Below, piece by piece: positions 12,264 to 34,916 of a stretch of DNA of 64,000 nucleotides. Under the pieces are notes generated by a model. That model saw only the letters and a list, made by a program, of their open reading frames with translations. It had not been told where the DNA came from and did not search any database. The position numbers and the translations under genes are program-made. Source of the DNA: an uncultured Gammaproteobacteria bacterium (GTDB taxonomy: Bacteria > Patescibacteriota > Microgenomatia > Levybacterales > UBA12049). The stretch covers positions 169,297 to 233,296 of the forward strand of contig CAZCCG010000002.1 of the NCBI GenBank assembly GCA_964497535.1, read 5' to 3'. Numbering within the stretch: position 1 is the stretch's first letter; the number at the start of each line of letters is the position of its first letter.

Positions 12264-13463
12264 TTAATTTTTTTGCCGGAGAAAGGCGGGGATATCCCAT
12301 ACATCTTCGTCTTCTTTAATATTCGTATCTTCCTGAGAGAAGTTTGCAGGACTTGGAGGAGTCTGCTGTGGTTGCTGCGTCTGTTGCGGCTCAGGTTGCT
12401 GATGAGTTATCGGAGTCACCGGCGGCTGGTATCTATGTTGTTCTTCCTGATGTTCTTCTTTCATCTCAGGACCACGGGGAATAGACATAAATTGCTGAAG
12501 TTTTTGTTTGTTCTGGTCAAATCCTGTGGCAACCACGGTAATTTTGAGCTGGTCATGCATTGCCTCGTTAATTGTTGCTCCAAAAATAATATTTGCATCA
12601 GGATCAGCACTTGCTGAAATAATTTTGGCTGCTTCATCAACTTCATTCATCGTCAAATCCGGCCCTCCAATAATATTAAAGAGTACTCCGCGTGCTCCGG
12701 TCATTGATATTTCCAGAAGCGGAGAAGAAATAGCTGACCGGGCTGCTGCTTGTGCACGATTTTCGCCAAATCCGGTACCAATTCCCATCAATGCCGAACC
12801 TGCATCAGTCATAATAGTTCGTACATCGGCAAAATCGACGTTGATCAGTCCCGGCATGGTGATCAAATCTGAAATTCCCTGTACACCCTGGGTCAACACG
12901 GAATCCGCTACTTTGAATGCTTCAAGAAGCGACATTTTTTTATCTACAACATCCAGAATTCTTTGGTTGGGAATAACAATCAGGGTATCTACTTTATCTT
13001 TGAGGTTTTCAATCCCATCTTCCGCCTGGACAAAACGGCGAGTTCCTTCAAAAGAAAAAGGCTTGGTAACAACCGCTACGGTAAGCGCTCCAACTTCTTT
13101 TGCAATTCGTGCTACAACTGGAGTAGCCCCTGTACCGGTGCCGCCACCCATTCCTGCTGTCAAAAAGACCATATCTGATCCCTCAAGCATGTCTTTAATT
13201 TTCTCTTCTGATTCTTCAGCAGCTTGGCGTCCCATTTCAGGATTGCCCCCGGATCCAAGTCCTTTGGTTAATTGATCACCAATTTGAAGTTTGCCATCTG
13301 CGGGACATCCCAGAAGTGCTTGAGCATCAGTATTGACTGCTACGAAATCAACGCCATTAATACTTGCCGAGGAAATCATTGAAGCGAGAGCATTGTTGCC
13401 ACCTCCACCAATACCCACAACCCTGATTTTTGCAAAATTTGAAGTAGTTGGTTTGATCAGCAT
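12264..13463 (-). CDS. ftsZ: Cell division protein FtsZ
   Basis: [22 protein letters not shown] tubulin signature, C-terminal DIPAFLR tail. Confidence 0.95.
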
Positions 13464-13518
13464 AGGAGTGATAGCATCCTAGCAGATACAACTGGAGATT
13501 GCAAGTATACTTCATAGC

Positions 13519-14385
13519 TTAGGTATATAGTATTCGTGCATTGTTATCTGCGGATAATGACATTGTAAGATGTTCTAATGACATCCATATAATTCCTCTT
13601 TCTGAGTCAATTACCTGGATATCCATTTCACCATTTGTCTGTACCTGATATCCTGCAACACAAACTGAATGTCTCCCAACTACATCTTTATCCAAATAAA
13701 TATGATTCGACATAACAGCTAAAAGAACTGCTTGGGTATCTAAGATATTTTTTATGAGTTTTGCATTCGCACCAATCTTAGACTCATTTATTTCACTTGT
13801 TGATCCGATATAGCTTATCGTTGTGGCAAACTCTCCGTGTGATGAAACATATTCTTTCCCTACTATTCGTATGGGTTGCGTAGTTTTGTGAAGCCCAGGT
13901 AAAGAACTAATTTGAACTTCTTCATACCTTTGCCTGGCACTCATTTCTTCTAATTCTTCATATGTCATCCCTCCTCTTTTTGATTTTTCTATGTCAATTG
14001 CAAAGTTAAGCAAATCCATAGTAAATTGTGTTTTTGGACGGATTCCTAAAGCCTTCATACCGCTGGCAAATGACCAGGGTAAGCAAGTTGGTTCTATTCC
14101 CTGGTAATACCATCCCCCGGTATAAACGTGGGATGAGGCAGGACAGGCTGTAAGAGTACGGTTAGAATCAGCCAGACTTCGTTCAAAAACAGCTAGATCC
14201 TGTGCAGATGCTTTTAATTCCAGAGGGGGCAATGGATGATCAAGAAGTCGACTTACTGTCTGCCTATCATAATCAAATCCATACCCTGTCCCAATAAGAT
14301 CAGATCCAAACAAACGGATATTTGGTTTTTCTTGGGCACCAACCTCAAAAAAGTAGGATATATCTGCTTCCCGAGCAATAGCCAT
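13519..14385 (-). CDS. Hypothetical protein between ftsA and ftsZ; possible papain-fold cysteine peptidase
   Basis: 288 aa; Cys context PTCLPWSFASG and His context GRHSVCVAGYQ resemble C1/C39-like catalytic dyad motifs; speculative. Confidence 0.4.
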   Translation of the reverse strand: MAIAREADISYFFEVGAQEKPNIRLFGSDLIGTGYGFDYDRQTVSRLLDHPLPPLELKASAQDLAVFERSLADSNRTLTACPASSHVYTGGWYYQGIEPTCLPWSFASGMKALGIRPKTQFTMDLLNFAIDIEKSKRGGMTYEELEEMSARQRYEEVQISSLPGLHKTTQPIRIVGKEYVSSHGEFATTISYIGSTSEINESKIGANAKLIKNILDTQAVLLAVMSNHIYLDKDVVGRHSVCVAGYQVQTNGEMDIQVIDSERGIIWMSLEHLTMSLSADNNARILYT

Positions 14386-14418
14386 AAAACGAGGTATTAT
14401 ACCATGGAAATTCTATCG

Positions 14419-15738
14419 TTAGGGGATGAAGGATTTCAGAAGATTAACAACTTTTTTAACCATCTTTCCGCTTGGCATACCTCCAAGTCGTGGCATAGAA
14501 AATCCGAGAGGAAGTGACTTACCACCGCCGGTATCTTGTTTTGCCCCGTAAATCAAAAGCCCGACTCCTGCTGAAAAAGCAGGGCTATTGATCTCATCAA
14601 TCAAACCCTTTAGACCGGTTGGCATACCGACTCGTACCGGCATCGCAAGCATTCGCTTGGCAGATTCTGAAATTCCTACTGTCAATGATCCCCCACCTGT
14701 TATTACTAACCCTGCAGGAGTTTGACCTCCATATCCGCTCTTTTTAATCTCAAGTCCAATCATTGTGAATATTTCATTTAGTCGTGGGCGTATAATACCG
14801 TCAACCAATGTTTTTCGGGAAACCTTGTGTAATTCTTCAGGAAGTTCCAATACACCCAAATCTACTTCATCACTGATGGATGCCAAATCAGCCCGCTTCA
14901 CGGTACGACCCATCATCGTTTCTTCTGTATCTTCCGGCATGACAATTTTTTTCTGTGGCTCAGACAAAAATAATTTGATTTTCTCAGCACTTTCCAGAGA
15001 AAGCCGTAAACCGATTGCCAAATCATTGGTAATATGACGAGCACCAATAGGCAGAACTGAAGAATATGCAATTGCTCCATCAACATAAATAGAGATATCG
15101 GTAGTTCCCGCTCCCATATCTACCAAAACTACCCCTAATTCCTTCTCAGTATCGGTAACCACGGCAAGACTACTGGAATATCCACTAAATACGATACTAT
15201 CCACATCTACTCCTACTTGTGACAGTGCTTTTTCAAGATTACGCAAAGCAGTACTGCTTGCTGTTATGATATGGGTATCTACCTCCAACCGTACCCCTGT
15301 CATGCCAATCGGATCTTTGATACCATCTTGCCCATCTACCGAATAGTTACGCGGCAGTACGTGGATAATTTCTCGTGTTGAAGGCAATGAAATGGCTCGA
15401 GCAGCATCTATAACGCGTTCAACATCGTTACTGATAATCTCTCCATCAGGCTTGGAAACTGCTACAACTCCATGAGAATTTTGGCTTTCAATATGACCGC
15501 CACCGATAGAAGCCGTAACATGAGCCACAGAATAACCGGCCATTCGCTCCGCAGCTTCGATTGAGGAATTTATTGCAGCTACTGCTTCTTCAATATCAAC
15601 GATTTGTCCTTTTTTTATTCCTAAGGCTCGAGTCTCTGCAACTCCCAAAACATTGATTTCTTCATCAATTTTGGCAATTATCGTAACGATTTTCGAGGTC
15701 CCAATATCAACTCCAACAACTATCTTTCCATCTGTCAT
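14419..15738 (-). CDS. ftsA: Cell division protein FtsA
   Basis: Actin-fold N-terminus IVVGVDIGTSKIVTIIA; 439 aa; position upstream of ftsZ. Confidence 0.92.
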   Translation of the reverse strand: MTDGKIVVGVDIGTSKIVTIIAKIDEEINVLGVAETRALGIKKGQIVDIEEAVAAINSSIEAAERMAGYSVAHVTASIGGGHIESQNSHGVVAVSKPDGEIISNDVERVIDAARAISLPSTREIIHVLPRNYSVDGQDGIKDPIGMTGVRLEVDTHIITASSTALRNLEKALSQVGVDVDSIVFSGYSSSLAVVTDTEKELGVVLVDMGAGTTDISIYVDGAIAYSSVLPIGARHITNDLAIGLRLSLESAEKIKLFLSEPQKKIVMPEDTEETMMGRTVKRADLASISDEVDLGVLELPEELHKVSRKTLVDGIIRPRLNEIFTMIGLEIKKSGYGGQTPAGLVITGGGSLTVGISESAKRMLAMPVRVGMPTGLKGLIDEINSPAFSAGVGLLIYGAKQDTGGGKSLPLGFSMPRLGGMPSGKMVKKVVNLLKSFIP

Positions 15739-15760
15739 ATGAATACTAATTTAATTTGAT

Positions 15761-16201
15761 CTATTTGCGGTACACGATCACAGGATTATCAAACCTAAAA
15801 TCCAGGCTTGAAAACCGCTTTCCCTCTATTGTAAGCCGTGACAGGACAAATTGTAAAGAGGATATTTGTTGTGCAATCGGTTTTTTGGAAGAAAAATATA
15901 TGTATTCTCCATCTTTGAACTTTATAAGATACGAGTAGTCTTCTGCAATGTAAACCCCTTCATAGTCAATATGAGCTTTCCGCAGTCCCTCTTCTATTGA
16001 AAGTGTGTTGTTAGACCGCTGAGTAATAAACTTTCCCAAAGGCAACGGGCTAATAAAGTCAGGAGCCTGGTTTAACAAAATACCCACGACTACCATTACA
16101 AAACTGAAAAGAAATATAACAGCACTTACCGAAAGAAAAAATAACCGTAGTTTACGGCGTGATCGATTCCGTACCTTCCGCGGATTATGAGCAGATTTCA
16201 T
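15761..16201 (-). CDS. ftsQ: FtsQ/DivIB-like cell division protein (short form, single TM + POTRA-like region)
   Basis: Basic N-terminus, one TM, 146 aa; call based mainly on synteny between murG and ftsA. Confidence 0.5.
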   Translation of the reverse strand: MKSAHNPRKVRNRSRRKLRLFFLSVSAVIFLFSFVMVVVGILLNQAPDFISPLPLGKFITQRSNNTLSIEEGLRKAHIDYEGVYIAEDYSYLIKFKDGEYIYFSSKKPIAQQISSLQFVLSRLTIEGKRFSSLDFRFDNPVIVYRK

Positions 16202-16202
16202 C

Positions 16203-17312
16203 TTAATGCACTACCTTCTGTACTTGCTCAAAGATTTTTAAAGCTGCGGCAGGATGAAGAAGTTGTTTCCCTTTCTGCGCTGCTTTTTCGTATTCTTCTT
16301 TCCTATTGTACATATTCTTTAGAAGTTCGTACACTCGGTCAACCGATGCATCATCTTGCAGCACTACTCGTGCAAACCCCAAAGACGCAACCATTTGGGC
16401 ATTTTTCAATTGTTCACCGCGTTGACCATAGGGTAAGGGAATAAAAAGTGCCGGTTTTCCAAAATACAAAACCTCGGTTACCGTATTAATCCCGGCTCTG
16501 CCCAAAACAATATCTGCTTGGTGAAAAACACTGCCAATCTGCCCAGGACTGATAAATTTGGTAGCAACGTAGCGCTTCGCAAGCTTTGGGGAAAGACCAT
16601 CGACCACTTTTTGTAATCGGTCATAGTCGTTATACTGATGTGAATCTCCGGTCTGATGAATAATACGAAATGTTTGGAGCAATCTTTCAAGTCCTGAAAC
16701 AATCAGCATATTGATAAAATGTGCTCCTCCGCTCCCCCCGGTTACATACAAAAGCGGCACTTTCTCCTCGGAAATTTGAAATTGAAAATTTGAAATTGAA
16801 AATTTTTTCAGAGGATTACCCGTCAACACCGTTTTGCCTTTTGGAAAAAATTCTTCAGATTCTTTCCAGGAGATACAAATAGTTTTTGCAAAACGGCTGG
16901 CAAGTTTATTGGCAGCGCCTGCCTCAAGCGTTTGTTCATGAATCACCACAGGAATACCCAAAGTCTTTGCTGCCAACGTCACTGGAACTGCTACGTATCC
17001 ACCAAAAGAAAGGATACAATCAGGTTTGTATTTGCCCAAAATCAAAAGCGCCTGGGCATACCCATAGGGAATCTTCAAAATTGAAGGAATAGTATGGATG
17101 GTTAATGATCGTTGGACTCTTCCTGTTGTTAAAGCCTGAAAATTCCACTGCTCTATTTCTGCCGTTTTATACTCCAAAGAAAGAGCTTGATCACCCTCAA
17201 AGGTATACTTTCTTCCAATAAGTAAAAAGTCAACATCTTTTGGCAGTATTTTTATGACTGCATATGCTGCTGCGAAATGTCCTCCTCCCCCTGCTGTAAT
17301 AACAATTTTCAT
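16203..17312 (-). CDS. murG: UDP-GlcNAc:MurNAc-pentapeptide-PP-undecaprenol GlcNAc transferase MurG
   Basis: MKIVITAGGGGHFAAAYA (N-domain G-loop), GGSGGAHF (C-domain); contains an in-frame low-complexity insertion FSISNFQFQISEEK in the inter-domain linker. Confidence 0.9.
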   Translation of the reverse strand: MKIVITAGGGGHFAAAYAVIKILPKDVDFLLIGRKYTFEGDQALSLEYKTAEIEQWNFQALTTGRVQRSLTIHTIPSILKIPYGYAQALLILGKYKPDCILSFGGYVAVPVTLAAKTLGIPVVIHEQTLEAGAANKLASRFAKTICISWKESEEFFPKGKTVLTGNPLKKFSISNFQFQISEEKVPLLYVTGGSGGAHFINMLIVSGLERLLQTFRIIHQTGDSHQYNDYDRLQKVVDGLSPKLAKRYVATKFISPGQIGSVFHQADIVLGRAGINTVTEVLYFGKPALFIPLPYGQRGEQLKNAQMVASLGFARVVLQDDASVDRVYELLKNMYNRKEEYEKAAQKGKQLLHPAAALKIFEQVQKVVH

Positions 17313-17315
17313 AAT

Positions 17316-18431
17316 TTATTTATGATGAGCGTGAACGCTCTGTTTTGAAATATTCAACAATATTCCAACTGCCGTTAAATCTATTATAAGCGATGATCCA
17401 CCATAGGAGATAAACGGTAATGGAACTCCGGTAAGTGGAATCAATGCCGTTTGGGCTGCCAGGTTTACAAACACCTGCATAGCAAGAAATGATGTAATAC
17501 CTGCAGCAAGAAGTTTACCAAATTGATCGGAAGCATGTATCGCAATAATAAAACCTCTCCATACTACTAATATGAATAGCAATATTACACCAGTTGCTCC
17601 TATAAATCCCATCTCTTCAGCAATAATTGCAAAAATTGAATCAGTTGTATTCTCTGGTAAATAAGCATACTTTTGTAATGAATTTCCCAACCCCACACCA
17701 CTAAATCCTCCTGACCCTAAAGCAATCAAAATTTGACGGACATGATATGATGACCCTTGTAATTCTTGTTCGGGATTTAAAAAAGTCGCAAGACGTTGCG
17801 CACGATACGGGGACAATTTAATCAATAATAATCCAGCTACTCCAAGTGCCGGAATAACAAAGATAAAATTTCGGATGCTTCCACCGGAAAGAAAATAAAG
17901 AATAAATGCTTCAGACATAATAATAATTGCCGTTCCCATGTCAGGCTCAAGCATTACCAACCCCAACACCAACCCAATCAAAAGACAAAACGCCAGAAAA
18001 CGCCCTTTTTCTTTGGTAGAAAACCATGCAGATAGATAAATAGCCAACGTAAGTTTTACAAACTCAGCCGGTTGAAGGATAAAAAAATGTAGATTAATCC
18101 ACCGATGTGCTCCTAACACTTTTACTCCAATACCGGGGATGAATACAAGCATTAGAAGTCCAATGGCCACAATTAATAGTGGCAAGGATAGATTATAAAA
18201 TCTATGATAGTCAAAATAGGAGAAAAAAAGAAGAGCAGTAATTCCTATAGCAAACCATATTGATTGTTCTTTAATATAATAATACTTATCTGCAAAATCC
18301 CGAAAAGCGATAAAAGATGACGCATCAAAAATAATCAACAGTCCAAAAAATGTTAGTAAGAGAGTTAACGCCAGGAGAAAAAAATCAAATCGTTTCATGA
18401 GCTTTTTTAATTCTAGTCTATTTGGAAGCAA
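17316..18431 (-). CDS. ftsW: SEDS-family peptidoglycan glycosyltransferase FtsW/RodA
   Basis: ~10 TM polytopic protein with SEDS hallmarks; location in dcw cluster. Confidence 0.88.
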   Translation of the reverse strand: MLPNRLELKKLMKRFDFFLLALTLLLTFFGLLIIFDASSFIAFRDFADKYYYIKEQSIWFAIGITALLFFSYFDYHRFYNLSLPLLIVAIGLLMLVFIPGIGVKVLGAHRWINLHFFILQPAEFVKLTLAIYLSAWFSTKEKGRFLAFCLLIGLVLGLVMLEPDMGTAIIIMSEAFILYFLSGGSIRNFIFVIPALGVAGLLLIKLSPYRAQRLATFLNPEQELQGSSYHVRQILIALGSGGFSGVGLGNSLQKYAYLPENTTDSIFAIIAEEMGFIGATGVILLFILVVWRGFIIAIHASDQFGKLLAAGITSFLAMQVFVNLAAQTALIPLTGVPLPFISYGGSSLIIDLTAVGILLNISKQSVHAHHK

Positions 18432-18444: not shown

Positions 18445-19473
18445 TTATCGAATAAACGCCAGATACAGACCTACAACAGCGAAGACAAAGCCCAAAAGCC
18501 ATGCCCTCATGACGATTTTTGGCTCTTCCCACCCTTTCATCTGAAGAAATAAATGAAGAGGCGCAACCGGCATAACTTTTTTCTTGAGGAATTTTTTTCC
18601 CAGTAACTGAATCAATGAAGAACCTACTTCCAAAACAAAAACTCCTCCAATAACTCCCAGAGCCGGAATCTTACCAGTCAAAAGTCCAATAACTGCTAGG
18701 CAAGCCCCCAATGCCATTGAACCAGTATCTCCCAACCATAGCCTGGCCCGATAAATATTGAAATAAAGAAATGCACCAATAGATCCCATCAGAATTGCAA
18801 TAAATATACCCAATCCCTGATCAAGTTGTGTGGAAACCTGAGAGATTGCCAGAAATGCTACCAAACAAATAAGAAAAAGTCCTGATGCAAGTCCATCAAG
18901 TCCATCTGTAATATTAAATGCGTTAGTGAATGAAACAATAATAAAGGCGGCAAAAACTGCAAAAATAAGAGGAGGAATTGGTATTGTTCCGATTCCATGA
19001 ATATACAAGAAGTTAAATCCTAATTGGGTCGCCAAAACCATTCCAATAATGCCTGCCAATATCCATTGAATGAAAAATTTGTGGCGAAATCTGAGTCCGA
19101 AAAATGCTTTGGCATGAGCGGTACCGGGCTTCACCAATTTTTTCAAATCATCGTAGAACCCTAACAGTCCAAAACCAATAAAAGAAAAAATTAATACAAA
19201 TGTCTCCCACGGTTTTACTTCTATTCCAAACAATCCATATGCCCAAAAAGTCAATAAAGAAGTTACCAACACAACGAGAATTCCTCCGCCAAAGGGAGTA
19301 CCAACTTTCCAAGAGTTAAATTTATCAAATATAGGGGTACGTTTGTCAAATATGTCTTTGGTTACCTGTTTTTGACGCTTCAATTTCACCTTATACAGGA
19401 AATCTATAAAAGGAATGAGTAGGATAAAACTGATAAAAAATGATAAGATCGAAAGCCCCAAAAGCTGAGACAT
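18445..19473 (-). CDS. mraY: Phospho-N-acetylmuramoyl-pentapeptide transferase MraY
   Basis: Polytopic protein with DDLKKL and NAFNITDGLDGLA motifs. Confidence 0.92.
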   Translation of the reverse strand: MSQLLGLSILSFFISFILLIPFIDFLYKVKLKRQKQVTKDIFDKRTPIFDKFNSWKVGTPFGGGILVVLVTSLLTFWAYGLFGIEVKPWETFVLIFSFIGFGLLGFYDDLKKLVKPGTAHAKAFFGLRFRHKFFIQWILAGIIGMVLATQLGFNFLYIHGIGTIPIPPLIFAVFAAFIIVSFTNAFNITDGLDGLASGLFLICLVAFLAISQVSTQLDQGLGIFIAILMGSIGAFLYFNIYRARLWLGDTGSMALGACLAVIGLLTGKIPALGVIGGVFVLEVGSSLIQLLGKKFLKKKVMPVAPLHLFLQMKGWEEPKIVMRAWLLGFVFAVVGLYLAFIR

Positions 19474-19554
19474 AGACTGATATTATACCTCCAATCAGTT
19501 GTGATAGCAATTCTTTTTAGGCCTATATTAAATAGGATCCCTCTGGGGAAATCC

Positions 19555-20604
19555 TCAGTAGCCTCGTTTTATACGCCAAATGGTTTCAATGGTGTAATTC
19601 TTCCAATAGAGGGGAGATGTCGGTAAATCCTGAGCATGAATTAAATTTACTCGTCTTCCGCCAAATCCTGTTTTAAATAACGTTAAACCGTGCCATGGAT
19701 GCTTTGGTTTTTCAGGCGGAACTACCCCCCAAAAATTATAGATAGTTTTCCCCTGCCTTTTTGCTTCTTTGATTGCTTCCCATTGAATTAGGTATGCCCC
19801 GGGAATATCTTTATATTCATCGGCTGAAGCACCATGATGATAGACTGCCTGATTTCCATAGTAAATGACTAAAGCACCGGCAATAATGTTAGAATTATGC
19901 CGGGCTACAAATAACTTTGCCATTTTATTGTTGACGAAAATATCAAATTCTTCTCTCAAACCCCGATGAGGAATAAAATTATGACGCTTGGAAGTCCGCT
20001 CATACAGATCCATAAACTCTTCAAAATCTTTGGCTGTCCCGGCACTGCTTATCTCAACACCCAGGTTTTGTGCACGTCTTACCAGATACCTCGTTGTTTT
20101 TCGCATTCCTGCCATAATTTCTTGCTCATCCTGACTCAGATCCAATACCCAGGCATTTTCAGCATCCATATTGTGAACTGGTGCATTTCTAAATCCTCGT
20201 TTTACAAAAAAGGGCATATCTGCATGTTCTTCTTCAATAACAGGAGATATACGAATGAATTCAATCTTTTTATGCCGACATCGATTTTTAAGGTCTTCCA
20301 AAAGTACATCAAAACTGTTTTCAAAATGGGTTAACACTGGTCCGTGACGAAGATGGAAATAATGAGCACGTTTTGCTTTTATCTCAACGAGTTGGGCAAT
20401 ACCTACCAGTGTATTTTCATTAAAGATTCCAATACGATTAACCTCATGACCTACTCTTTTTTGAACCTCTCCCCATTTCCACGACTGAAAAAAAGGAGTA
20501 TAAGCGATGTTACTCCTCAACAAAAATTGTTCCCAAATGGTTTCATTTGATATATCGCGAACTTTTAGCATATGACTGTAATAATGATACAATTTTTTTG
20601 ACAT
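19555..20604 (-). CDS. FemAB-family peptidoglycan interpeptide-bridge aminoacyltransferase (FemX-like)
   Basis: FemAB-type N-terminus (FFQSWKWGEVQK), ~350 aa, acyltransferase fold pattern. Confidence 0.7.
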   Translation of the reverse strand: MSKKLYHYYSHMLKVRDISNETIWEQFLLRSNIAYTPFFQSWKWGEVQKRVGHEVNRIGIFNENTLVGIAQLVEIKAKRAHYFHLRHGPVLTHFENSFDVLLEDLKNRCRHKKIEFIRISPVIEEEHADMPFFVKRGFRNAPVHNMDAENAWVLDLSQDEQEIMAGMRKTTRYLVRRAQNLGVEISSAGTAKDFEEFMDLYERTSKRHNFIPHRGLREEFDIFVNNKMAKLFVARHNSNIIAGALVIYYGNQAVYHHGASADEYKDIPGAYLIQWEAIKEAKRQGKTIYNFWGVVPPEKPKHPWHGLTLFKTGFGGRRVNLIHAQDLPTSPLYWKNYTIETIWRIKRGY

Positions 20605-21793
20605 CCTGTGTGGACATTCGGGGATAAGTAGGAAGATTAACGATAGTTACAGCAAGATGCCTTGCTTGAGGTGTCAAAGCCGGATAAAAATGAATTTTTT
20701 CAAATTGTACCCCTTTGGGATCAATAATATTGGCATACCACGTACCCAAATATATATTATTTTTTTTGAAAAGCTCCAATAGATCCTCCCGATGATGACA
20801 CAGGATAGGAAATCTCAAGTAAGGTATCTCTTGAGTAGATGGTAATTCAAATGAAGAACCGGCAAGTTCCTTTTGGTATTGAGTGGAGATTTGAATTCTT
20901 TTTTTATTATATTCAGCAATTTTGCGTAATTGAGACAGAGCAAGGATACACAAAGCATTCGGCATTTTTCTCACAAATAGCTCACTTCGATTTGAGCGTT
21001 TTTCACCTATAGTTACCGGCATCGAGAGCAAATGCAGACGTTGTAATACTACCAGTATTACTTTGCCCAACGATAAAACCGTATAGAAGGGTAAAATAAT
21101 GCCAAAAGCAAGTGGATGCAGAAGCTGTTGAAAAATCCAAAAAAATCCCGGGTATTCTTGTTTTTTCTGAAATTGTCGAAGCGTATTCCCCAATGTTTTA
21201 TCATTTGTAATTGCCATTCCTCCAAATACACTGGAAAAAGCCTTATCTCTCCCAAAACTAAAAAAAGCTGCATCTCCAAACGTTCCTAATTTTTTACCAT
21301 CATATGTTCCCCCTACAGTATGCGCACAATCTTCAATAATAAGCAGGTTATGTTTCTTGGCAATTTTTTTGATCTGATCCATTTGGGAGGGAATTCCAAA
21401 GGTATGCTGTACCAAAATTGCTTTTGTCTTTGATGTAATGTTTTTTTCAATAGTATCGGGATTGATTGTCCCATCAAAAAGGACATCTACATATACCGGC
21501 TTTGCGCCTGCCCAAATGATCGCATTTGGCACGGCAACACAAGTAAATGCTTGCAACAACACTTCGTCTTTCTCTCCAATTTCCATTGCTTTTAATAAAC
21601 TATAAAAAGCAGACCGACCGCTATTAAATGATATTGCATATGACATGGAGAAATAGTTACGAAACCACTGTTCAAGTTTGCCTATAGAATCACCTGAAAA
21701 ATAATTCCAGGGACGGAGAATAGCTCCGAATGTTACTGCTATATCATCAGGTTGTGTGTTGGGGGATAAACCAGGAGCTATAGGAAATGCCAT
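20543..21793 (-). CDS. DegT/DnrJ/EryC1/StrS-family PLP-dependent sugar aminotransferase
   Basis: AFTCVAVPNAIIWAGAKPVYVDV and SFGRDKAFSS (PLP-lysine region) typical of the DegT family. Confidence 0.7.
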   Translation of the reverse strand: MAFPIAPGLSPNTQPDDIAVTFGAILRPWNYFSGDSIGKLEQWFRNYFSMSYAISFNSGRSAFYSLLKAMEIGEKDEVLLQAFTCVAVPNAIIWAGAKPVYVDVLFDGTINPDTIEKNITSKTKAILVQHTFGIPSQMDQIKKIAKKHNLLIIEDCAHTVGGTYDGKKLGTFGDAAFFSFGRDKAFSSVFGGMAITNDKTLGNTLRQFQKKQEYPGFFWIFQQLLHPLAFGIILPFYTVLSLGKVILVVLQRLHLLSMPVTIGEKRSNRSELFVRKMPNALCILALSQLRKIAEYNKKRIQISTQYQKELAGSSFELPSTQEIPYLRFPILCHHREDLLELFKKNNIYLGTWYANIIDPKGVQFEKIHFYPALTPQARHLAVTIVNLPTYPRMSTQDVKKIVSLLQSYAKSSRYIK

Positions 21794-21795
21794 AG

Positions 21796-23433
21796 TTATG
21801 CTTTCCTCACTTTCGTCACAATAACGCGGGGAATACCTTTTCCCATCATCACACTAATATCACCTTTTTTTGTATTGTTTACAACAAAATCAGTAATCTC
21901 CTCTATTGTTCCCGTTTTCACTTTACATTCCCCTTTTCCATCAGTAATTCCCTGAGTAATTTCTTTGTAAAAGTTTTTATTGACGAGAAAGAGATAATCG
22001 CATATAACAGAGATTGCTTTTGCAACTCTATAGTGTTCTTCTTTTCCTTTTTTCCCAAGTTCAATCATTGGTTCCAATATGAAAATTCTCTTGCCTTTAT
22101 ATTGCTTTATATACTCAAGCGTTGCAATCACACTATCAGGATTTGCATTAAATGTATTATCTAAAATATGGGATCCGTTTGAAAGTTCACTTCGAACCAT
22201 CGTATGAGGCAGCGGCGTTAGCTTGGATACGGCTGTTTTTATTTCCATATCGGACATTCCCAAATAGTCAGCTAGATAAATAGCGGGAAGAATATTTTCA
22301 ACCATATGGAGCCCAATCAATGATGTTTTTAAATGCAGTATTTTTTTTCTCAACTGCACATCAAAGTGAGTTCCATCCTCCTGGCCAGAGATATTATAGG
22401 CAACAATGTCCCCCAATTTCCCTACATTTGTTAATACTGTCTTTTTTGCCGATGATATAACTCTCCGATAGAGGACTTTTTTCTTTGTTGTATTTTTGTA
22501 TAGTTGAAAAACACGTTCGTTATTTCCGTTAAAAAGTGCCAAACCGTTTCTAGGAAGCGATTCAATTAATTCATATTTGGTTTTTTCTATATTTTCAATA
22601 CTTCCAAACAATGATAAATGTTGGCCTGCTATTGCTGTAAGTACACCGATTTTAGGACGGGCAATTGCACACAGCTCCGCGATTTCTCCTTTTTTATACG
22701 CTCCCATTTCTGCCACAAATATCTGAGTATTATTTTTTAATCCTTTCAAAATAGTATATGCTACCCCGATTGGAGTATTATCGGAATACTTTGTTTTTAA
22801 TACCTCGAATTTATGGGAGAGAACCTGGGCAATAAATTCCTTGGTAGAACTTTTTCCATAGCTGCCGGTAACTCCAATTACTAACAACTTTTCACTTTTT
22901 AAAATTTTTTTGGTTGCCCGCTCAATCTGGTAATCCTTGTAAAGCACCGTCGGCAAGGATACCGCAAAAACAACACATCCAACAACAAAAGGCAAAAGAA
23001 TATCCAAAATCATTAACCATACAAATGGATCTGTAGTAAGAGGAATGAGAAACAATGTAGTATAAATGTAAATTACTATCCCAATTAAAAGAAGCGCTTT
23101 TGTAGTAAATTTCGGACGCCGGAATGTATGAGTTAACAGTTCGTGGATAACCGCAACTCCTTCAATGAGTAATACAAGAGTAACAACTATTTGATAGAGT
23201 ACGAGAAAAAGTGGGTTATATACTGCAAATGCAAATCCTAATATCAGAATCCATTTGAAAATCGCATAAAATGAAAAAAGAATACTCTTACCACTGTGCG
23301 TTTCTGAAAGCTCTGCAAATAGCCGATCATACCGGTATTCCCGCCGTTGCCATAAAGACACCCAAAAAAAGGTGTTGCGTACTACCCATAAGAGAAAACT
23401 GACTGCGGCAATATAATATAAAACAGTAATCAT
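21796..23433 (-). CDS. murF: Mur ligase family protein (MurF-like D-Ala-D-Ala adding enzyme) with ~170-aa N-terminal polytopic membrane domain
   Basis: C-terminal two-thirds has the Mur ligase P-loop VIGVTGSYGKSSTKEF; the N-terminal ~170 aa contain 4–5 hydrophobic helices. Confidence 0.7.
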   Translation of the reverse strand: MITVLYYIAAVSFLLWVVRNTFFWVSLWQRREYRYDRLFAELSETHSGKSILFSFYAIFKWILILGFAFAVYNPLFLVLYQIVVTLVLLIEGVAVIHELLTHTFRRPKFTTKALLLIGIVIYIYTTLFLIPLTTDPFVWLMILDILLPFVVGCVVFAVSLPTVLYKDYQIERATKKILKSEKLLVIGVTGSYGKSSTKEFIAQVLSHKFEVLKTKYSDNTPIGVAYTILKGLKNNTQIFVAEMGAYKKGEIAELCAIARPKIGVLTAIAGQHLSLFGSIENIEKTKYELIESLPRNGLALFNGNNERVFQLYKNTTKKKVLYRRVISSAKKTVLTNVGKLGDIVAYNISGQEDGTHFDVQLRKKILHLKTSLIGLHMVENILPAIYLADYLGMSDMEIKTAVSKLTPLPHTMVRSELSNGSHILDNTFNANPDSVIATLEYIKQYKGKRIFILEPMIELGKKGKEEHYRVAKAISVICDYLFLVNKNFYKEITQGITDGKGECKVKTGTIEEITDFVVNNTKKGDISVMMGKGIPRVIVTKVRKA

Positions 23434-24149
23434 TGGATAAACTTTAAAACCTCCTCGGCAAATTTTTGAGGATACTCATATGGCAACTTATGTGTCGCCT
23501 CAGGTACCACTACATAAGTCGCACCCGGAATATACTCTGCAATCTCTTTTCCTATTATCAATGGTACAAATGTATCCTGTCCTCCCCATACTACCAATGT
23601 TTTTGTATGGATAGTTGGCAAAAGTGAAAGCAAGTCCTCATGAATGACTTTTTTGAATGTTTCTTTCAGACCTCCTGCTTTATAATAATCCCACTCTCCC
23701 AACAACTGATATGTCCCTTTTTTAAAGAGATCTGAAACTTCTTTTGGAAGGATATCCACAACTTGTTTGCCTGATTTTGCAATAGAGGAGATAACTTGTT
23801 TTTTCAATGATAATTTTTTTCTGATAAGCGGTGAACCGGTCAAAATCAGAGCTTGAACCAGCTGCGGATTTTGAGCGGACAATTTAGCAGCAATCCTTCC
23901 TCCAAATGAATGACCAATTAAAATTACTTTTTTCAACTGTTTCTTTATCATAAATTCTTTGACAAAATCAACATAGTCATCTAAATCCATACCTGGTTTG
24001 GTCAAAGGTTGCTTACCAAACCCGGGCAAATCTGGAGTAAAAACCGCAAACCCTTTTTTTTCAAGAATAGATTTGAGCTCGGAATAGCGATCCCCAGTCA
24101 TTGTTGTTGCCCATCCATGCAGGATGATAATTGGATATTTTTGTTTCAT
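23430..24149 (-). CDS. Alpha/beta-hydrolase fold protein
   Basis: Nucleophile elbow GHSFGG; ~240 aa. Confidence 0.75.
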   Translation of the reverse strand: MKQKYPIIILHGWATTMTGDRYSELKSILEKKGFAVFTPDLPGFGKQPLTKPGMDLDDYVDFVKEFMIKKQLKKVILIGHSFGGRIAAKLSAQNPQLVQALILTGSPLIRKKLSLKKQVISSIAKSGKQVVDILPKEVSDLFKKGTYQLLGEWDYYKAGGLKETFKKVIHEDLLSLLPTIHTKTLVVWGGQDTFVPLIIGKEIAEYIPGATYVVVPEATHKLPYEYPQKFAEEVLKFIQ

Positions 24150-24150: not shown

Positions 24151-25911
24151 CTATTTAACTGTTACGCTTTTTGCAAGATTACGAGGTTTATCAGGATCAA
24201 ACCCTTTCTTCAATGCAAGATAATAACCCAAAAGTTGTGCAGGAATGATTTGAGGAATGATAGTTGCCTGTCCAACATCGTGTACTTCAATCCAATAATC
24301 AAAAATAGGAGAATTTTTTGAAGAAACTCCAATAATAATACCTCCCCGTGATTTAATTTCCATTGCATTTGATAACATTGCTTCATATGTTTGATCCTGT
24401 GGCGCAAAGACAATACAAGGAGTTCCCTCGGAGATCAAAGCGAGTGTCCCATGTTTGAGTTCTCCTCCTGCCAATCCTTCCGTATGAATATAGCTCACTT
24501 CTTTTATTTTAAGTGCCGCCTCCAAAGCGGTAGGAAGTGAAATTCCTCTCCCAATGGTATATAAATGTTCTTTTTTTGAAAGTAATTCAATAATGGGTTC
24601 AAGCTTTTCAATATTTTTTTTCTCCAAAAGCCGTTCTATCTCCTCAGCAGCTTTATCCAGAAGCGTTATAGATTCATTTACTTCTCCTTTTACCGCATAG
24701 GCAAGCATAAGAAGGATAGAAAGTTTGGCAATATATGCTTTTGTTGAAGCCACTGCTTTCTCAGGTCCTGCTCCAAGAAGCAATTTATAGTCTGCAAGTC
24801 TATATATTGTTGATCCTAAAACATTGGTGATAGCCACAATTTTACTTCCCTTTACTTTTGCGTGATTAAGTGGCTCTACAACATCGATTGTTTCACCGGA
24901 TTGAGATAAAGCAATTACCAAACTTTTTTTGTTGAGAAAATCTTCTAAATAATTAAATTCGGATGCGAAAGATGTATTTACATGCTTATGAGCTAATGTA
25001 GAAAACCAATACACCCCTGCCAAACAAGCATGGTATGCAGTTCCTGCAGCAATAAAAAATGTCCCTTTTGCCTCTGTTACAATTTTCCCCAAACTCTGGA
25101 CTTGTTGTCCATACTCATGCGCTATATTACGAATTACTTTTGGTTGTTCGTAAATTTCTTTTAGCATGAAATAATCATAAGTACCTTTATCTGCATCTTC
25201 TACTTTCCACGTAATTGTTTCAAAAGTTGGTTTAATTTTTGTGCCTTGAGGCATTTGCAGCAATTGTAAATCTTTACCGAGCACTACCATTTCATTATCT
25301 TTTAAAAATAACAGTTCTCTTGTATATTTAATAATTCCTGCTGCGTCTGATGCGATAAAATATTCATCATTTGTTTTTCCAACAATCAGCGGAGAGCCAT
25401 TTTTGACTGCAACAATTTCTTTCGAGGGGGCATATGCAACAACGATCGCATTCAATCCTTTTAGTTGGTTAAATGCATCACGAACAGATGAAGTAAATCC
25501 TTCTTTTTTTAGATTTTCTTCAATGAGATGACATACTATTTCAGTATCTGTTTCTGAAATAAATGTGTGACCTTTTTTTTGAAGTTGGGTTCTGAGTTCT
25601 GCGAAATTTTCAATAATTCCGTTGTGAACTACAGCTAAATCTTTGTTACAATCTAAGTGTGGATGTGCATTCTCTGTCGTAACCCCACCATGAGTTGCCC
25701 ATCGCGTATGACCAATACCAATTTCACTGTCTGCTAAGTTAACAGTAGCATTTCCAATTTTCCCGGTATGTTTATCAACAACAAGTTTTCCGCCATCCTT
25801 AACAGTTATTCCCCAAGAATCATATCCTCTGTATTCCAGAAGTTTTAATCCCTCAAGTACAATGGCTGCCGCATTTTTTCTCGTACCGATGTATCCAAAT
25901 ATTCCACACAT
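24151..25911 (-). CDS. glmS: Glutamine--fructose-6-phosphate aminotransferase (GlcN-6-P synthase)
   Basis: MCGIFGYIG Ntn-amidotransferase start, two SIS domains, 586 aa. Confidence 0.95.
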   Translation of the reverse strand: MCGIFGYIGTRKNAAAIVLEGLKLLEYRGYDSWGITVKDGGKLVVDKHTGKIGNATVNLADSEIGIGHTRWATHGGVTTENAHPHLDCNKDLAVVHNGIIENFAELRTQLQKKGHTFISETDTEIVCHLIEENLKKEGFTSSVRDAFNQLKGLNAIVVAYAPSKEIVAVKNGSPLIVGKTNDEYFIASDAAGIIKYTRELLFLKDNEMVVLGKDLQLLQMPQGTKIKPTFETITWKVEDADKGTYDYFMLKEIYEQPKVIRNIAHEYGQQVQSLGKIVTEAKGTFFIAAGTAYHACLAGVYWFSTLAHKHVNTSFASEFNYLEDFLNKKSLVIALSQSGETIDVVEPLNHAKVKGSKIVAITNVLGSTIYRLADYKLLLGAGPEKAVASTKAYIAKLSILLMLAYAVKGEVNESITLLDKAAEEIERLLEKKNIEKLEPIIELLSKKEHLYTIGRGISLPTALEAALKIKEVSYIHTEGLAGGELKHGTLALISEGTPCIVFAPQDQTYEAMLSNAMEIKSRGGIIIGVSSKNSPIFDYWIEVHDVGQATIIPQIIPAQLLGYYLALKKGFDPDKPRNLAKSVTVK

Positions 25912-25913
25912 AG

Positions 25914-26363
25914 TTAGGTATTTCCTCCTAAATAGATACGATAATCATTTGTATCTCTTTTTTCAAAACCAAGTGATTCATATAATCTATTTGCGGCAAC
26001 TCGAGTAGGATTAGACGTGAGATCAATATGATGTATTCCCTCTTTTTTTGCCATCTCAAGAAGTTTTTTGACCAAAAGAGTCCCTACTCCTTTTGATCTG
26101 TGGTTATCATCAACAAAAACATCCTGAATCCATCCTCTTTTGCCACTTAAAGCAGGTGACATAATAAGCGTTATGGTACCTATTATCTCCTCCCCCTCCA
26201 GAGCTACAAAAAGTTTTACCGAAGGGGCTACCAACAAACCTTTGAGATAATTTTCTGTCAATTGAAGCAACTGCGGATTTAACTCTTTTATAAATCTGTT
26301 GAGAGTTTCTAAAAGATATGGTGAATAGGTATCTATTTGTTGAACATTGATATTTTTTTCCAT
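25914..26363 (-). CDS. GNAT-family N-acetyltransferase (possible GNA1-like glucosamine-phosphate N-acetyltransferase)
   Basis: GNAT motif A region RSKGVGTLLVKKLLEMAKKEG; function inferred from genomic context. Confidence 0.7.
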   Translation of the reverse strand: MEKNINVQQIDTYSPYLLETLNRFIKELNPQLLQLTENYLKGLLVAPSVKLFVALEGEEIIGTITLIMSPALSGKRGWIQDVFVDDNHRSKGVGTLLVKKLLEMAKKEGIHHIDLTSNPTRVAANRLYESLGFEKRDTNDYRIYLGGNT

Positions 26364-26364
26364 A

Positions 26365-27138
26365 TTATGCTGTCTCTGAAGAAGCAGTTGAGATATGATT
26401 TAGGCTGGTAAATAATTTCTCAGCTTCTTCCAGTTCTTCTTTTGTATTTACACCCTGCCATGAAAGCTTTCCACCCTGTACTGTTGCAATTTTTTGATTA
26501 TGTTTCATTGCCGTATCAATCAAACTGGTAAGATAATATTCTCCGGTAACGGGACTTTTTTCAACTTTCGCAAGATATTTACTGAGAAAAGTTCTACTAA
26601 ACACATAGCAAGCCGGATTAATTTCATGGATTTGTCTTTGTTCCAATGTGGCATCTTTTTCTTCAACAATTGCTGTTACTTTTCCACCAAGATCGCGTAC
26701 TACCCGTCCCAGACCTGTTGGGTCATCTTTTTCAATCGTTAGAAATGTAACCGCAGCAGATGAATTAAAATGAGTATCTATTAATTTATTTAAAATTTCT
26801 TTGCTATAAAAAGCAGAGTCATCTCCTCCTAAAACAAGTACATCTGTAATTGATGGCGGTAATTTCTTCAATCCGCAAAATACAGCATGAGCTGTTCCCA
26901 ACCGTTTTCTCTGTTCTGCAAAAAGCACCGATGTCCCTGATAATGCTTTCATTACTGATTCTTTTGCAAACCCGACAACAACAACAATGTTTTGCAGCTG
27001 TAAACTTTCCAGAAGCAAAATCGAGTGCAGGATCATCGGTTTGTCCGCAAGGGAAACGGCAACTTTATTGATATCCTTGGCTTTCATACGTTTTCCTTTA
27101 CCTGCAGCCATAATAATAGCTCCAATATGTTCTCTCAT
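26365..27138 (-). CDS. Sugar-1-phosphate nucleotidyltransferase (GlmU N-terminal uridyltransferase-like; no LbH acetyltransferase domain)
   Basis: GAIIMAAGKGKRMK signature of GlmU/RmlA-type nucleotidyltransferases; only 257 aa. Confidence 0.75.
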   Translation of the reverse strand: MREHIGAIIMAAGKGKRMKAKDINKVAVSLADKPMILHSILLLESLQLQNIVVVVGFAKESVMKALSGTSVLFAEQRKRLGTAHAVFCGLKKLPPSITDVLVLGGDDSAFYSKEILNKLIDTHFNSSAAVTFLTIEKDDPTGLGRVVRDLGGKVTAIVEEKDATLEQRQIHEINPACYVFSRTFLSKYLAKVEKSPVTGEYYLTSLIDTAMKHNQKIATVQGGKLSWQGVNTKEELEEAEKLFTSLNHISTASSETA

Positions 27139-28469
27139 AATTCATCCTCTTTCTCACGAACAATGTCAGCCCCAAGATTAGTCAGACGCTGCTCAAATCG
27201 TTCATATCCTCGGTCGAGCTTTTCAACTCCAAAAATAGTACTTGTTCCACGAGCGGCCAATGCAGCCAATACCACTGCTGCACCTGCACGAATATCAAGC
27301 GTTGTAAGAATTGCATTGTGTAGTTGAGTAGGACCGGTTATACGAACCGCGTGGAAATACTCCGGACTGTCATCTTCCAGATTGAAATTGTATAGGTGCT
27401 CCCGGTTACCAACCTCAGGGTTATATAACTCCATCTGTGCACCCATTTTTTTCAAATCTTTTACATATCCCATTTTATTCTCAAATACTGTTTCATGTAC
27501 TGTTGAAACTCCATCAGCTTGAGTCATAAGTACTGCCCATGGAGCTTGCCAATCCGTCATAAATCCCGGATAAATAGCAGTAGCTACATCAGTCGCCTTC
27601 AAGGTATTTCTAAAGAAAAATCGTATTCCTTCTCCTTTGGACTCATATTCTCCTCCCACACTTTGAAGTTTTTGTAAAAAGGCTTCCAGGTTGACATTTT
27701 TTACATTCTCAACAAAAATATCTCCTTTGGTAACCAGCGCCGCAATTGCAAATGTCACAATTTCGTTTCTATCCGGACTAATGGTAAATTCTGCACCATG
27801 AAGTTTTTGTACCCCTTTGACTGTTATTTGTCGTTTTGCAGTACGTTTTATATCTGCTCCCATCAAATTAAGCAGGGTCATTAAATCATCAATTTCCGGC
27901 TCTTGGGCTGCATTCTCAAGCACTGTAGTACCTTCTGCGCAAACGGAAGCCAGAATCAAAGTCTCGGTACCGGTATGAGTATTTTTTTCAAATGTATAGT
28001 CAATCCCCTTGAGTCCCGTGGTTTTAGCATGAAAATAACCATCATCACTCATATAGGTTATATCGGTATTCATTTTGGCTATGCCTTCTATAGTCCGATC
28101 AATTGGACGAGCACCTAACCGGCATCCACCTGGATTTGGAATAATTGCCTCATGGGTACGAACCAACAGCGGAGCAATAAACATGGCAGAAGTTCTGGCA
28201 AGTGCTGCTTTTTCCAGAGAAATCGAGGAGGTTTTGAATTGTTGCATTCTAATTTTAGCTGTATGTCCCGTCACGACAACCTGAGCTCCTAACTCTTTCA
28301 TGATATCTACCATCACAAAAAAATCAGAGATATGAGGAACATTATGGATAATAACTTCTTCATCAGTAAGGCATGCGGCAACAAGCACCTTCAAGGCTAC
28401 ATTTTTTGCTCCTGATACAGCAACTGTACCACTGAGTCTTTTACCACCTGTTACGACAAACTTTTCCAT
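27135..28469 (-). CDS. murA: UDP-N-acetylglucosamine 1-carboxyvinyltransferase
   Basis: MEKFVVTGGKRLSGTVAVSGAKNVALKVLVAACL is the canonical MurA N-terminus; 444 aa. Confidence 0.95.
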   Translation of the reverse strand: MEKFVVTGGKRLSGTVAVSGAKNVALKVLVAACLTDEEVIIHNVPHISDFFVMVDIMKELGAQVVVTGHTAKIRMQQFKTSSISLEKAALARTSAMFIAPLLVRTHEAIIPNPGGCRLGARPIDRTIEGIAKMNTDITYMSDDGYFHAKTTGLKGIDYTFEKNTHTGTETLILASVCAEGTTVLENAAQEPEIDDLMTLLNLMGADIKRTAKRQITVKGVQKLHGAEFTISPDRNEIVTFAIAALVTKGDIFVENVKNVNLEAFLQKLQSVGGEYESKGEGIRFFFRNTLKATDVATAIYPGFMTDWQAPWAVLMTQADGVSTVHETVFENKMGYVKDLKKMGAQMELYNPEVGNREHLYNFNLEDDSPEYFHAVRITGPTQLHNAILTTLDIRAGAAVVLAALAARGTSTIFGVEKLDRGYERFEQRLTNLGADIVREKEDEL

Positions 28470-28553
28470 AGCATTTCTTAATTATAGTATTGGGGCAGTC
28501 TTATTGTAATAATTTCAGGCAGGTGAAACAAGAGGAAGAAACCACAACTGTAG

Positions 28554-29543
28554 TTACATTCCTACTCCATACACATTCATCATCAAATGAACTCCGCATT
28601 TTTTTAACACTTCATTTTTTGCCAATTGAACAAGGGCAACAACATCCGTTGCGCTAGCATTCCCTAAATTTACAATAAAATTCATATAGAGACCTGAAAT
28701 AATAGCATCTCCCACTTTTATATCTTTTACGCCCGATTTTCCCATCAGATGACCCGCAGAGACAATTTTATCAGGAACTTGAATCTGAGTTGACTCTTCA
28801 ACTGAGGTATTGCGAAAGGTACATCCTGATGTTTCTTTTGGTTGTGATGCACTTCGGTGCTGCAGAGCCTGAGTTCCTCGTTCCCATAGCAATTTTTTAT
28901 CCATGGGACTAAATTTAAAAATAACAGATAATACAATTTCTTTTGTTTGCTGCAAGATACTCTTGTCATACCCAAAGTTAAAATAGGATGAGTCTACTTC
29001 TTTTACTTCTCCCTCATGGGTAAGCAGACGTACCCGATATACACAATCACCTACAAATGCGCTTGCTTTCTCCCAATTGGAATTCATACAAATCCCACCT
29101 CCGACAGTCCCGGGAAGACCCAATTGATATTCAATACCGGAAAGTCCTTGTTCTATAGTAAAACGTACCAGTTGATTCATAATTGTTCCTCCTTCGGCAT
29201 ATACGTACGCATTATTGACATCCATTTTCCATCCTTCAGCTTTATTCTGCATTTTACCAGTCATACTCATGACGTCAAATTTTCGGCAGTTATTTTTGAT
29301 TACTAACCCCTTGAAACCGCTATCTGAAACAACCACGTTGGAACCTCCCCCCAGGATAAAAACTTCAATATCGTTTTCATAACATGTTTTTACCAGCTGA
29401 ATAATTTCATCAATTTTTTCGGTATCAATATAAAACTGGGCGGGACCACCAATTTTAAGTGTGGTATGCAACTTCATGGGTTCATCCAATCTCAACCTGT
29501 TCTGTCCCACAATTTGTTCTAATGCTTTTCTTTTCTTATCCAT
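28554..29543 (-). CDS. murB: UDP-N-acetylenolpyruvoylglucosamine reductase
   Basis: FAD-binding N-terminus KLHTTLKIGGPAQFY, MurB C-terminal domain; 329 aa. Confidence 0.9.
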   Translation of the reverse strand: MDKKRKALEQIVGQNRLRLDEPMKLHTTLKIGGPAQFYIDTEKIDEIIQLVKTCYENDIEVFILGGGSNVVVSDSGFKGLVIKNNCRKFDVMSMTGKMQNKAEGWKMDVNNAYVYAEGGTIMNQLVRFTIEQGLSGIEYQLGLPGTVGGGICMNSNWEKASAFVGDCVYRVRLLTHEGEVKEVDSSYFNFGYDKSILQQTKEIVLSVIFKFSPMDKKLLWERGTQALQHRSASQPKETSGCTFRNTSVEESTQIQVPDKIVSAGHLMGKSGVKDIKVGDAIISGLYMNFIVNLGNASATDVVALVQLAKNEVLKKCGVHLMMNVYGVGM

Positions 29544-29545
29544 AA

Positions 29546-31698: not shown

Positions 31699-31707
31699 TT
31701 TGATTAC

Positions 31708-34063: not shown

Positions 34064-34078
34064 GGATATGTAATGCAG

Positions 34079-34825: not shown

Positions 34826-34916
34826 TTCTTCCTTCCACTATTCGTAGGAGACATGGCGCGATGCCATATCTCATGGAGGTTTGGTAACACTCCCCATCCA
34901 CATCAGAGGATCCTTT

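Follow-up and report, generated by a model that had tools for sequence, protein, structure and literature searches.

A conserved hydrolase, MurF, DegT and FemAB gene tetrad in the cell-wall clusters of Patescibacteria, a candidate unit of peptidoglycan precursor synthesis

A four-gene unit encoding an alpha/beta-hydrolase, a membrane-anchored MurF-type Mur ligase, a pyridoxal 5'-phosphate (PLP) enzyme of the DegT fold and a FemAB-family protein was found in the division and cell wall (dcw) gene cluster of an uncultured bacterium of the candidate phyla radiation (CPR; Patescibacteria, order Levybacterales). The window analysed in this study is a stretch of 64,000 nucleotides (nt) of contig CAZCCG010000002.1, and all positions given below are those of the window unless stated otherwise. 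As shown by the open reading frame (ORF) list and a Pfam profile search, the interval 19555-21793 is filled by two minus-strand ORFs, one for the DegT-fold PLP enzyme (416 amino acids (aa); 20543-21793; PF01041) and one for a FemAB-family, FemX-like putative aminoacyl-tRNA-dependent transferase (338 aa; 19555-20571; PF02388 and PF13480). These are the third and fourth genes of an operon-like tetrad on the minus strand that starts with the alpha/beta-hydrolase (239 aa; 23430-24149; PF00561) and the MurF-type ligase with its transmembrane domain (545 aa; 21796-23433; PF08245 and PF02875). The hydrolase and MurF genes overlap by 4 nt, MurF and DegT are separated by 2 nt, and DegT and FemAB overlap by 29 nt. 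An earlier reading of this DNA from the letters alone (hereafter the sequence-only reading) had noted a FemAB-type and a DegT-type gene within the dcw cluster; both are real and lie between the MurF-type ligase and mraY, but the two other members of the unit, the hydrolase and the membrane-anchored MurF, had been missed. Judged from gene order and fusions, the tetrad probably constitutes a single peptidoglycan-precursor unit.

Homologues of the DegT, FemAB and MurF proteins are numerous in groundwater metagenomes, with identities of 45-60%, and the best matches assign the organism to Candidatus Levybacteria within Microgenomates. Two contigs located by exact protein (L001 and L003) carry the same run of hydrolase, MurF, DegT and FemAB genes with overlaps of 4-23 nt, and in one of the two mraY is not adjacent to the tetrad. 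In a survey of one genome per GTDB species, a DegT relative was detected in at least 512 species representatives. Synteny was counted in the best 80 of these loci, the ORFs of which were annotated with the window's own proteins, and the denominators are the loci with sufficient flank. Levy-, Gottesman- and Woesebacteria are represented among the 80 loci, as are the Parcubacteria lineages Staskawicz-, Wildermuth- and Yanofskybacteria and Spechtbacterales. MurF is the immediate upstream neighbour of DegT in 74 of 75 loci and FemAB its immediate downstream neighbour in 71 of 72, the hydrolase precedes MurF in 71 of 72, and the full tetrad is present in order and on one strand in 63 of 65. Microgenomates have mraY after the tetrad (42 loci); Parcubacteria have ftsI directly before it (14 loci), without the sugar genes. 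Because the neighbour is mraY in the former and ftsI in the latter, the unit is the tetrad itself and not a FemAB gene next to mraY. The position of the DegT gene, which the sequence-only reading had called unusual, is so when compared with model bacteria; in the CPR, however, the tetrad is the rule.

Moreover, each adjacent pair of the tetrad is found fused in some natural protein. Among the 50%-identity representatives of the DegT clade, in which DegT fusions were looked for, there are four DegT-FemAB fusions (P0252, P0278, P0284 and P0322; 747-769 aa), three MurF-DegT fusions (P0324, P0334 and P0342; 876-944 aa) and one fusion of a transglutaminase core to DegT, and a single hydrolase-MurF fusion (P0462) was obtained from the MurF search. 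Several of these proteins recur at identical length, P0278 having two members, P0334 occurring on five contigs and the P0342 cluster holding four members. Such recurrence on independent contigs or members indicates that the fusions are not single assembly errors, and the fusion of every adjacent pair argues strongly for joint action of the four proteins. All four proteins retain their catalytic motifs.

The MurF-type ligase scores 230.1 bits against the murF model TIGR01143 (cutoff 288.6), versus at most 72 bits against the models of murC, murD and murE. PF01225 is absent, as is the N-terminal UDP-MurNAc-binding domain, the place of which is taken by predicted hydrophobic helices at residues 1-179, an all-helical membrane domain of ~175 residues and roughly five helices. 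In the AlphaFold model (predicted local distance difference test score, pLDDT, 91.7), helices at residues 2-30, 35-44, 46-52, 55-70, 74-101, 111-129 and 136-179 lead up to the ligase domains. The first loop, for which the positive-inside rule predicts a cytoplasmic position, contains the invariant residues W28 Q29 E32 Y33 R34 D36 R37 (WQxxEYRxDR). Two to six hydrophobic segments precede the P-loop in all 77 of 77 homologous MurF ORFs, and in 80 genomes this protein is the sole MurF-type ligase within 10 kb of the cluster.

For the FemAB gene, the longest ORF (19555-20604) matches PF02388 with an E value of 4.6e-38 and 131.6 bits (cutoff 24), so that the family assignment holds in a profile hidden Markov model search, and it also matches the FemAB-like GNAT domain PF13480 with 46 bits. 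The true start is most likely the ATG at 20571 (MLKVRDIS...), since the resulting 338 aa agree in length with P0121, an identical protein in the database, and with close homologues. The score against the FemX equivalog NF047883 (UDP-MurNAc-pentapeptide-lysine N6-alanyltransferase), 45.5 bits, is far below the cutoff of 500. Matches in the PDB are led by Staphylococcus aureus FemX (6snr, E value 8e-15), followed by FemA, an aminoacyl-tRNA-dependent peptide synthase (9wqw) and Weissella FemX. The F-K catalytic motif, the Lys of which is K305 in Weissella FemX, is present, LFKTGFGG matching the FK of FemX and FemA from S. aureus in the alignment. The surrounding block, HPW.G.tLFK.GFGG, is kept in 71 homologues, and the protein has no coiled-coil insert. 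From its gene context, namely the position between murF and mraY and the nearby aminoacyl-tRNA synthetase genes GlyRS, SerRS and LysRS, the putative donor would be an aminoacyl-tRNA and the putative acceptor a precursor amine, and a branched stem peptide is a reasonable expectation from a FemX-like enzyme. GlyRS is encoded at 43297-44613, just upstream of mraZ, and in Parcubacteria loci, including L037 and L046, SerRS (20 loci) and LysRS (17 loci) genes are found within 10 kb of the tetrad; as a hint to the donor tRNA, these synthetase genes are circumstantial.

The DegT ORF matches PF01041 (DegT_DnrJ_EryC1) with an E value of 1.9e-69 and 235 bits (cutoff 19.8), versus just 23.5 bits for the amino-acid aminotransferase class I/II profile. 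The PLP lysine, K184 in FSFGRDK, and the aspartate facing the pyridine nitrogen, D155, are both invariant in 80 homologues, and K184 lines up with the QdtB lysine in the PDB alignment. All PDB matches are sugar or inositol aminotransferases, with alignments limited to residues 27-225, the large domain. A Foldseek search with the AlphaFold-type model (pLDDT 93.8) retrieved ArnB, perosamine synthase, WbpE, QdtB and an archaeal sugar transaminase with template modelling scores of 0.72-0.76 at 20-26% identity, the probability being 1.00 for the first four. Pfam, PDB and Foldseek thus agree in grouping the enzyme with sugar and inositol rather than amino-acid aminotransferases, as the sequence-only reading had expected. 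The protein reaches no curated NCBIfam equivalog, scoring 172.5 bits against PseC (cutoff 423.5), 150.7 against ArnB (631) and 139.7 against a WecE-type model (375).

Two further features set this DegT clade apart. Before the C-terminal domain, where ~64 residues stand in place of ~12 in QdtB, a hydrophobic insertion of ~50 residues (~213-265) forms two hydrophobic helices in the model and has the consensus PsffW..QQllHP...ILP.Y....GK..L...Q....LS.PV...EK. In addition, the GRDK motif places an invariant Gly three positions before the PLP lysine, where family members such as QdtB, ArnB and DesV carry an aromatic residue or His that contacts the sugar phosphate. Both the insertion and the GRDK motif are kept across Microgenomates and Parcubacteria, from Levybacteria to Parcubacteria. 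Homologues are named in databases as 'DegT/DnrJ/EryC1/StrS family aminotransferase', 'perosamine synthetase', 'FemA/FemB family protein' and 'MurF'; for this DegT clade, the automated labels 'sugar aminotransferase' and 'perosamine synthetase' are probably misleading.

The hydrolase matches PF00561 with 102 bits and reaches no NCBIfam equivalog, its best being the EstV lipase (91 bits versus a cutoff of 300). Its Ser nucleophile lies in a GHSFGG elbow, accompanied by a conserved Asp and His, and the motifs LHGW, GHSFGG, WG..D and H are kept in 72 homologues.

The fusions, the order of MurF, DegT, FemAB and, in part, mraY, the membrane domain of MurF and the hydrophobic insertion of DegT together point to a membrane-associated stem-peptide unit. 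We propose, with confidence only just short of even, that the tetrad finishes and branches the stem peptide. The four proteins would work as one membrane-associated unit that tailors the precursor peptide just before or at the MraY step. Within it, the MurF-type ligase would add the C-terminal dipeptide, as its family and position suggest, and the FemX-like enzyme, by analogy with its family, would transfer an amino acid from an aminoacyl-tRNA to a free amine of the precursor, yielding a branched stem peptide. The PLP enzyme may act at the same amino centre, either creating it by transamination of a carbonyl or epimerising or otherwise remodelling the free distal alpha-amino-acid centre of a position-3 diamino acid, and would hand its product to the FemX-like enzyme; this particular role may be correct but is possible rather than probable. 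The hydrolase might provide an accessory editing or ester-cleaving activity. A more far-reaching proposal, which we consider rather unlikely, is that CPR precursor synthesis includes a PLP-dependent step absent from studied bacteria, housed in a membrane complex of MurF, DegT, FemX-like enzyme and hydrolase: either the position-3 diamino acid would be remodelled in situ, by transamination, epimerisation or decarboxylation, before the tRNA-dependent branch is added, or a tRNA- and PLP-dependent route to the D-amino-acid terminus would replace Alr and Ddl.

Several points weigh against the proposed stem-peptide unit. To our knowledge, every characterised DegT-family member acts on keto-sugars, inosose or related carbonyls and not on peptide amino centres, and the proposed unit, read from gene data throughout, postulates a carbonyl source or an amino centre for its PLP step. 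The position-3 residue is not callable from sequence, the MurE motif being EDPR in Levybacteria and different elsewhere; the motif of MurE enzymes of the diaminopimelate type is DNPR. Fusion and synteny speak for functional linkage and say nothing of reaction order, and the hydrophobic insertion of DegT could serve for contact with another protein instead of with membrane or lipid.

An alternative, raised by the sequence-only reading and the weakest of its claims, is that DegT is a true nucleotide-sugar aminotransferase acting on a UDP-GlcNAc or UDP-MurNAc derivative or on a UDP-MurNAc-peptide, so that the glycan would gain an extra amino group, perhaps aminoacylated by the FemAB protein. The fold agrees with this, as every significant PDB or NCBIfam neighbour of DegT is a sugar or inositol aminotransferase; UDP-MurNAc-peptides are themselves nucleotide sugars, on which the nucleotide-binding habit of the family could be reused; and glmS, glmU, murA and murB share the cluster in Microgenomates. 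DegT aminotransferases need a keto substrate, however, which is normally supplied by a short-chain dehydrogenase/reductase (SDR) dehydratase or an oxidoreductase encoded nearby. When all unassigned ORFs of the 80 loci were clustered, no SDR, dehydratase or oxidoreductase family was found to recur near the tetrad; the recurrent neighbours are GlmU-like, FtsQ-like and DgkA-like proteins, SerRS, LysRS, MreC, chaperones and a few others. By contrast, a second, canonical DegT-family gene in the same genome, which reaches the RfbH equivalog (527 bits versus a cutoff of 423), adjoins an SDR nucleoside diphosphate (NDP)-sugar dehydratase/epimerase in a glycan cluster ~6-8 kb past the right end of the window (L086:583-2958); its similarity to the dcw DegT is limited to 38% identity across the first 165 residues. 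The absence of sugar genes around the Parcubacteria tetrad, the Gly of the GRDK motif at the place of a sugar-phosphate contact and the scores below every curated equivalog cutoff also speak against sugar amination, and the fusions of DegT to MurF and to FemAB suggest a part in peptide assembly and not in a sugar pathway of its own. We consider UDP-sugar amination unlikely.

It is also conceivable, but distinctly less likely still, that the tetrad supplies a D-Ala-D-Ala or equivalent terminus without Alr or Ddl. In this scheme, the PLP enzyme would yield a D-amino acid, either from pyruvate through D-specific transamination or through epimerisation of an aminoacyl ester or of a dipeptide's N-terminal residue. 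The FemAB protein would draw on aminoacyl-tRNA to build the dipeptide, intermediates would be edited or released by the hydrolase, and the MurF-type ligase would attach the product. All four activities would then have a role, the pairwise fusions would fit channelling towards MurF, and a PDB relative of the FemAB protein goes by the name of aminoacyl-tRNA-dependent peptide synthase. In many bacteria ddl belongs to the dcw cluster, and a phmmer search with Escherichia coli DdlB as the probe detected no Ddl-like ORF, either in the window or in the ~1.4 Mb that 84 loci cover around dcw clusters of the CPR; this search covered neighbourhoods only, and as ddl or alr may sit elsewhere, it is not taken as proof. 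On the other side, tRNAs carry L-amino acids, the hydrophobic insertion is unlike the needs of a tRNA-binding enzyme, and we know of no racemase or D-transaminase in the DegT family.

That DegT and FemAB serve another envelope polymer, such as an aminoacylated amino-sugar of a secondary wall glycopolymer, and merely hitch-hike in the dcw operon is highly improbable: the compactness of CPR genomes and their long stretches of co-directional genes, the presence in the same window of a large glycan cluster and an LCP-family gene (9086-10519), and FemAB relatives in exopolysaccharide systems (for example TIGR03019, a weak match) are in its favour, but it hardly explains the recurrent MurF fusions and the near-invariant order across very distant CPR lineages, and the conserved unit holds no glycosyltransferase.

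The dcw assignment of the surrounding cluster is based on co-directional mraZ, mraW, ftsI, mur genes, mraY, ftsW, murG, ftsA and ftsZ, with family matches that far exceed chance. All genes between 12.2 and 42.2 kb are on the minus strand, except for a GC-rich stretch at ~33-38.7 kb. Upstream of the tetrad, the order is mraZ, mraW, ftsI, murE, pgeF, murC, murB, murA, the glmU N-domain, a GNAT gene and glmS, with the precursor genes from murE to glmS at 24151-32919. Downstream of hydrolase, murF, DegT and FemAB follow mraY (18445-19473; PF00953, 103 bits) and then, at 12264-18431, ftsW, murG, a small ORF of 146 aa, ftsA, an unknown ORF of 288 aa and ftsZ. The mraY product, phospho-MurNAc-pentapeptide transferase, which catalyses the next step of the pathway, scores 167 bits against TIGR00445, under the NCBIfam cutoff of 192. 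Its gene starts after an 81-nt gap beyond FemAB (19474-19554), the sole sizeable intergenic gap of the stretch, in which mraY is preceded by a hairpin resembling a terminator (19555-19534) and a site resembling a promoter (19510-19482). As real signals this pair may be regarded as only suggestive, and the total counts of promoter- and terminator-like sites in the region are not above those of shuffled controls. In 21 loci (L014 and 20 others), a membrane protein of 123 aa is encoded between FemAB and mraY; by eye it resembles prokaryotic diacylglycerol/undecaprenol kinases (DgkA-like), and it has no NCBIfam match.

Neither murD nor ddl was found in the 64-kb window. In related loci murD (TIGR01087, 341 bits) sits in its canonical place between mraY and ftsW; replacement of MurD by the DegT-FemAB pair was considered and rejected, as FemAB chemistry cannot extend a carboxylate and murD is canonical in those loci. 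Among the precursor genes, the peptidoglycan editing factor PgeF/YfiH (30970-31698; TIGR00726, 147 bits) is encoded between murE and murC, a placement kept in many related loci. MurE (31708-32919) is a protein of 403 aa without the N-terminal Mur ligase domain, and its relatives of 390-427 aa likewise lack it. GlmU appears to be split (25914-27138) into a uridylyltransferase-only protein of 257 aa and a GNAT protein of 149 aa, the latter standing where the left-handed beta-helix acetyltransferase domain of GlmU is usual; related genomes encode GlmU-like proteins of 417-594 aa with hexapeptide repeats. The 288-aa ORF between ftsA and ftsZ (13519-14385) has no family match and no homologue in 84 related loci.

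The dcw cluster is split between ftsI and murE by a stretch of ~4.7 kb (34000-38700) with a GC content of 0.53-0.56, compared with ~0.38 for the genome, which is probably a foreign island. Its two large ORFs (34917-36872, 651 aa, with a weak HATPase_c_3 match; 36872-38638, 588 aa) belong to no Pfam family, and PADLOC returned nothing significant for this stretch. Elsewhere in the window, a SAM-I/IV riboswitch (4956-5061; 44 bits, above gathering) lies directly ahead of metK (5027-6184); the longest metK ORF, with a TTG start, overlaps the aptamer, so the true start is probably further downstream. A co-directional glycan and glycosylation cluster at 45256-63618 encodes DUF4012, sugar transferase, ManC-like, GT1, GT2, GT4, PMT-like and hexapeptide acetyltransferase proteins, together with two family-less proteins of 1009 and 657 aa. 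An asp_race-type cofactor-independent amino-acid racemase (229 aa; TIGR00035, 171 bits) is encoded beside a GH18 hydrolase (1403-3291) and could supply the wall with a D-amino acid.

The CPR accounts for a large share of bacterial diversity, and its envelope chemistry is essentially unmeasured. A tetrad that spans the radiation therefore offers a concrete, testable handle on how these bacteria build their walls. The four proteins are small and expressible, UDP-MurNAc-peptides, lipid II and aminoacyl-tRNA are obtainable, and the expected products are separable by mass spectrometry. Should the PLP step represent new chemistry, the peptidoglycan pathway would be extended, and the step would provide a lineage-specific marker and a possible selective target in the CPR. 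PLP-dependent remodelling of position 3, or replacement of Alr and Ddl, would if true amount to a stem-peptide chemistry or biosynthetic logic not yet described.

In the literature searched, including a survey of Mur chimeras and papers on CPR protein families and genomes, there is no MurF-DegT-FemAB unit or membrane-anchored MurF of the CPR, and no PLP enzyme that is an obligate or fused partner of MurF and FemX, nor its CPR-wide conservation. Among characterised systems, the FemAB protein compares best with FemX of Weissella viridescens (UDP-MurNAc-pentapeptide:L-alanyl transferase) and FemX/FmhB of S. aureus (lipid II:glycine glycyltransferase), with which it has PF02388, two GNAT-like lobes and the F-K motif in common. 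The position of its gene between murF and mraY matches the order of MurF, FemX and MraY action in Weissella, and the protein is similar in size to Weissella FemX and likewise without a coiled-coil arm, although the two align only over residues 149-284 and the CPR protein has a PLP enzyme as its obligate and sometimes fused partner. The DegT enzyme shares the fold, the PLP lysine and aspartate and a well-conserved large domain with the NDP-sugar aminotransferases QdtB, ArnB, PseC, GDP-perosamine synthase and WbpE, and differs from them in its low identity (20-26%), its insertion, the GRDK motif, the lack of a keto-sugar-forming partner and its place among peptide-building dcw genes.

Similarly, the ligase has the central and C-terminal ligase domains and the place before mraY of canonical MurF (UDP-MurNAc-tripeptide:D-Ala-D-Ala ligase), but swaps the UDP-binding N-terminal domain for a membrane domain and scores under the cutoff. 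MurT/GatD, the lipid II isoglutamine synthase, likewise combines a Mur-type ligase without a UDP-binding N-terminal domain with a dedicated nitrogen-handling partner and works at the membrane stage on lipid II; in the CPR, by contrast, the partner is a PLP enzyme and not a glutaminase, and the ligase is MurF-like, with the MurT model not among its matches. In DhpH of dehydrophos biosynthesis, a PLP domain precedes, within one polypeptide, a Fem-like Leu-tRNA transferase, which acylates the amine arising from the PLP chemistry, the same domain order as in the DegT-FemAB fusions; DhpH differs in being a secondary-metabolite enzyme that acts on a phosphonate amino-acid analogue outside cell-wall synthesis, and its PLP domain is of a different subfamily. 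In summary, each component of the tetrad belongs to a known family, and their combination is probably a variant peptidoglycan-precursor pathway.

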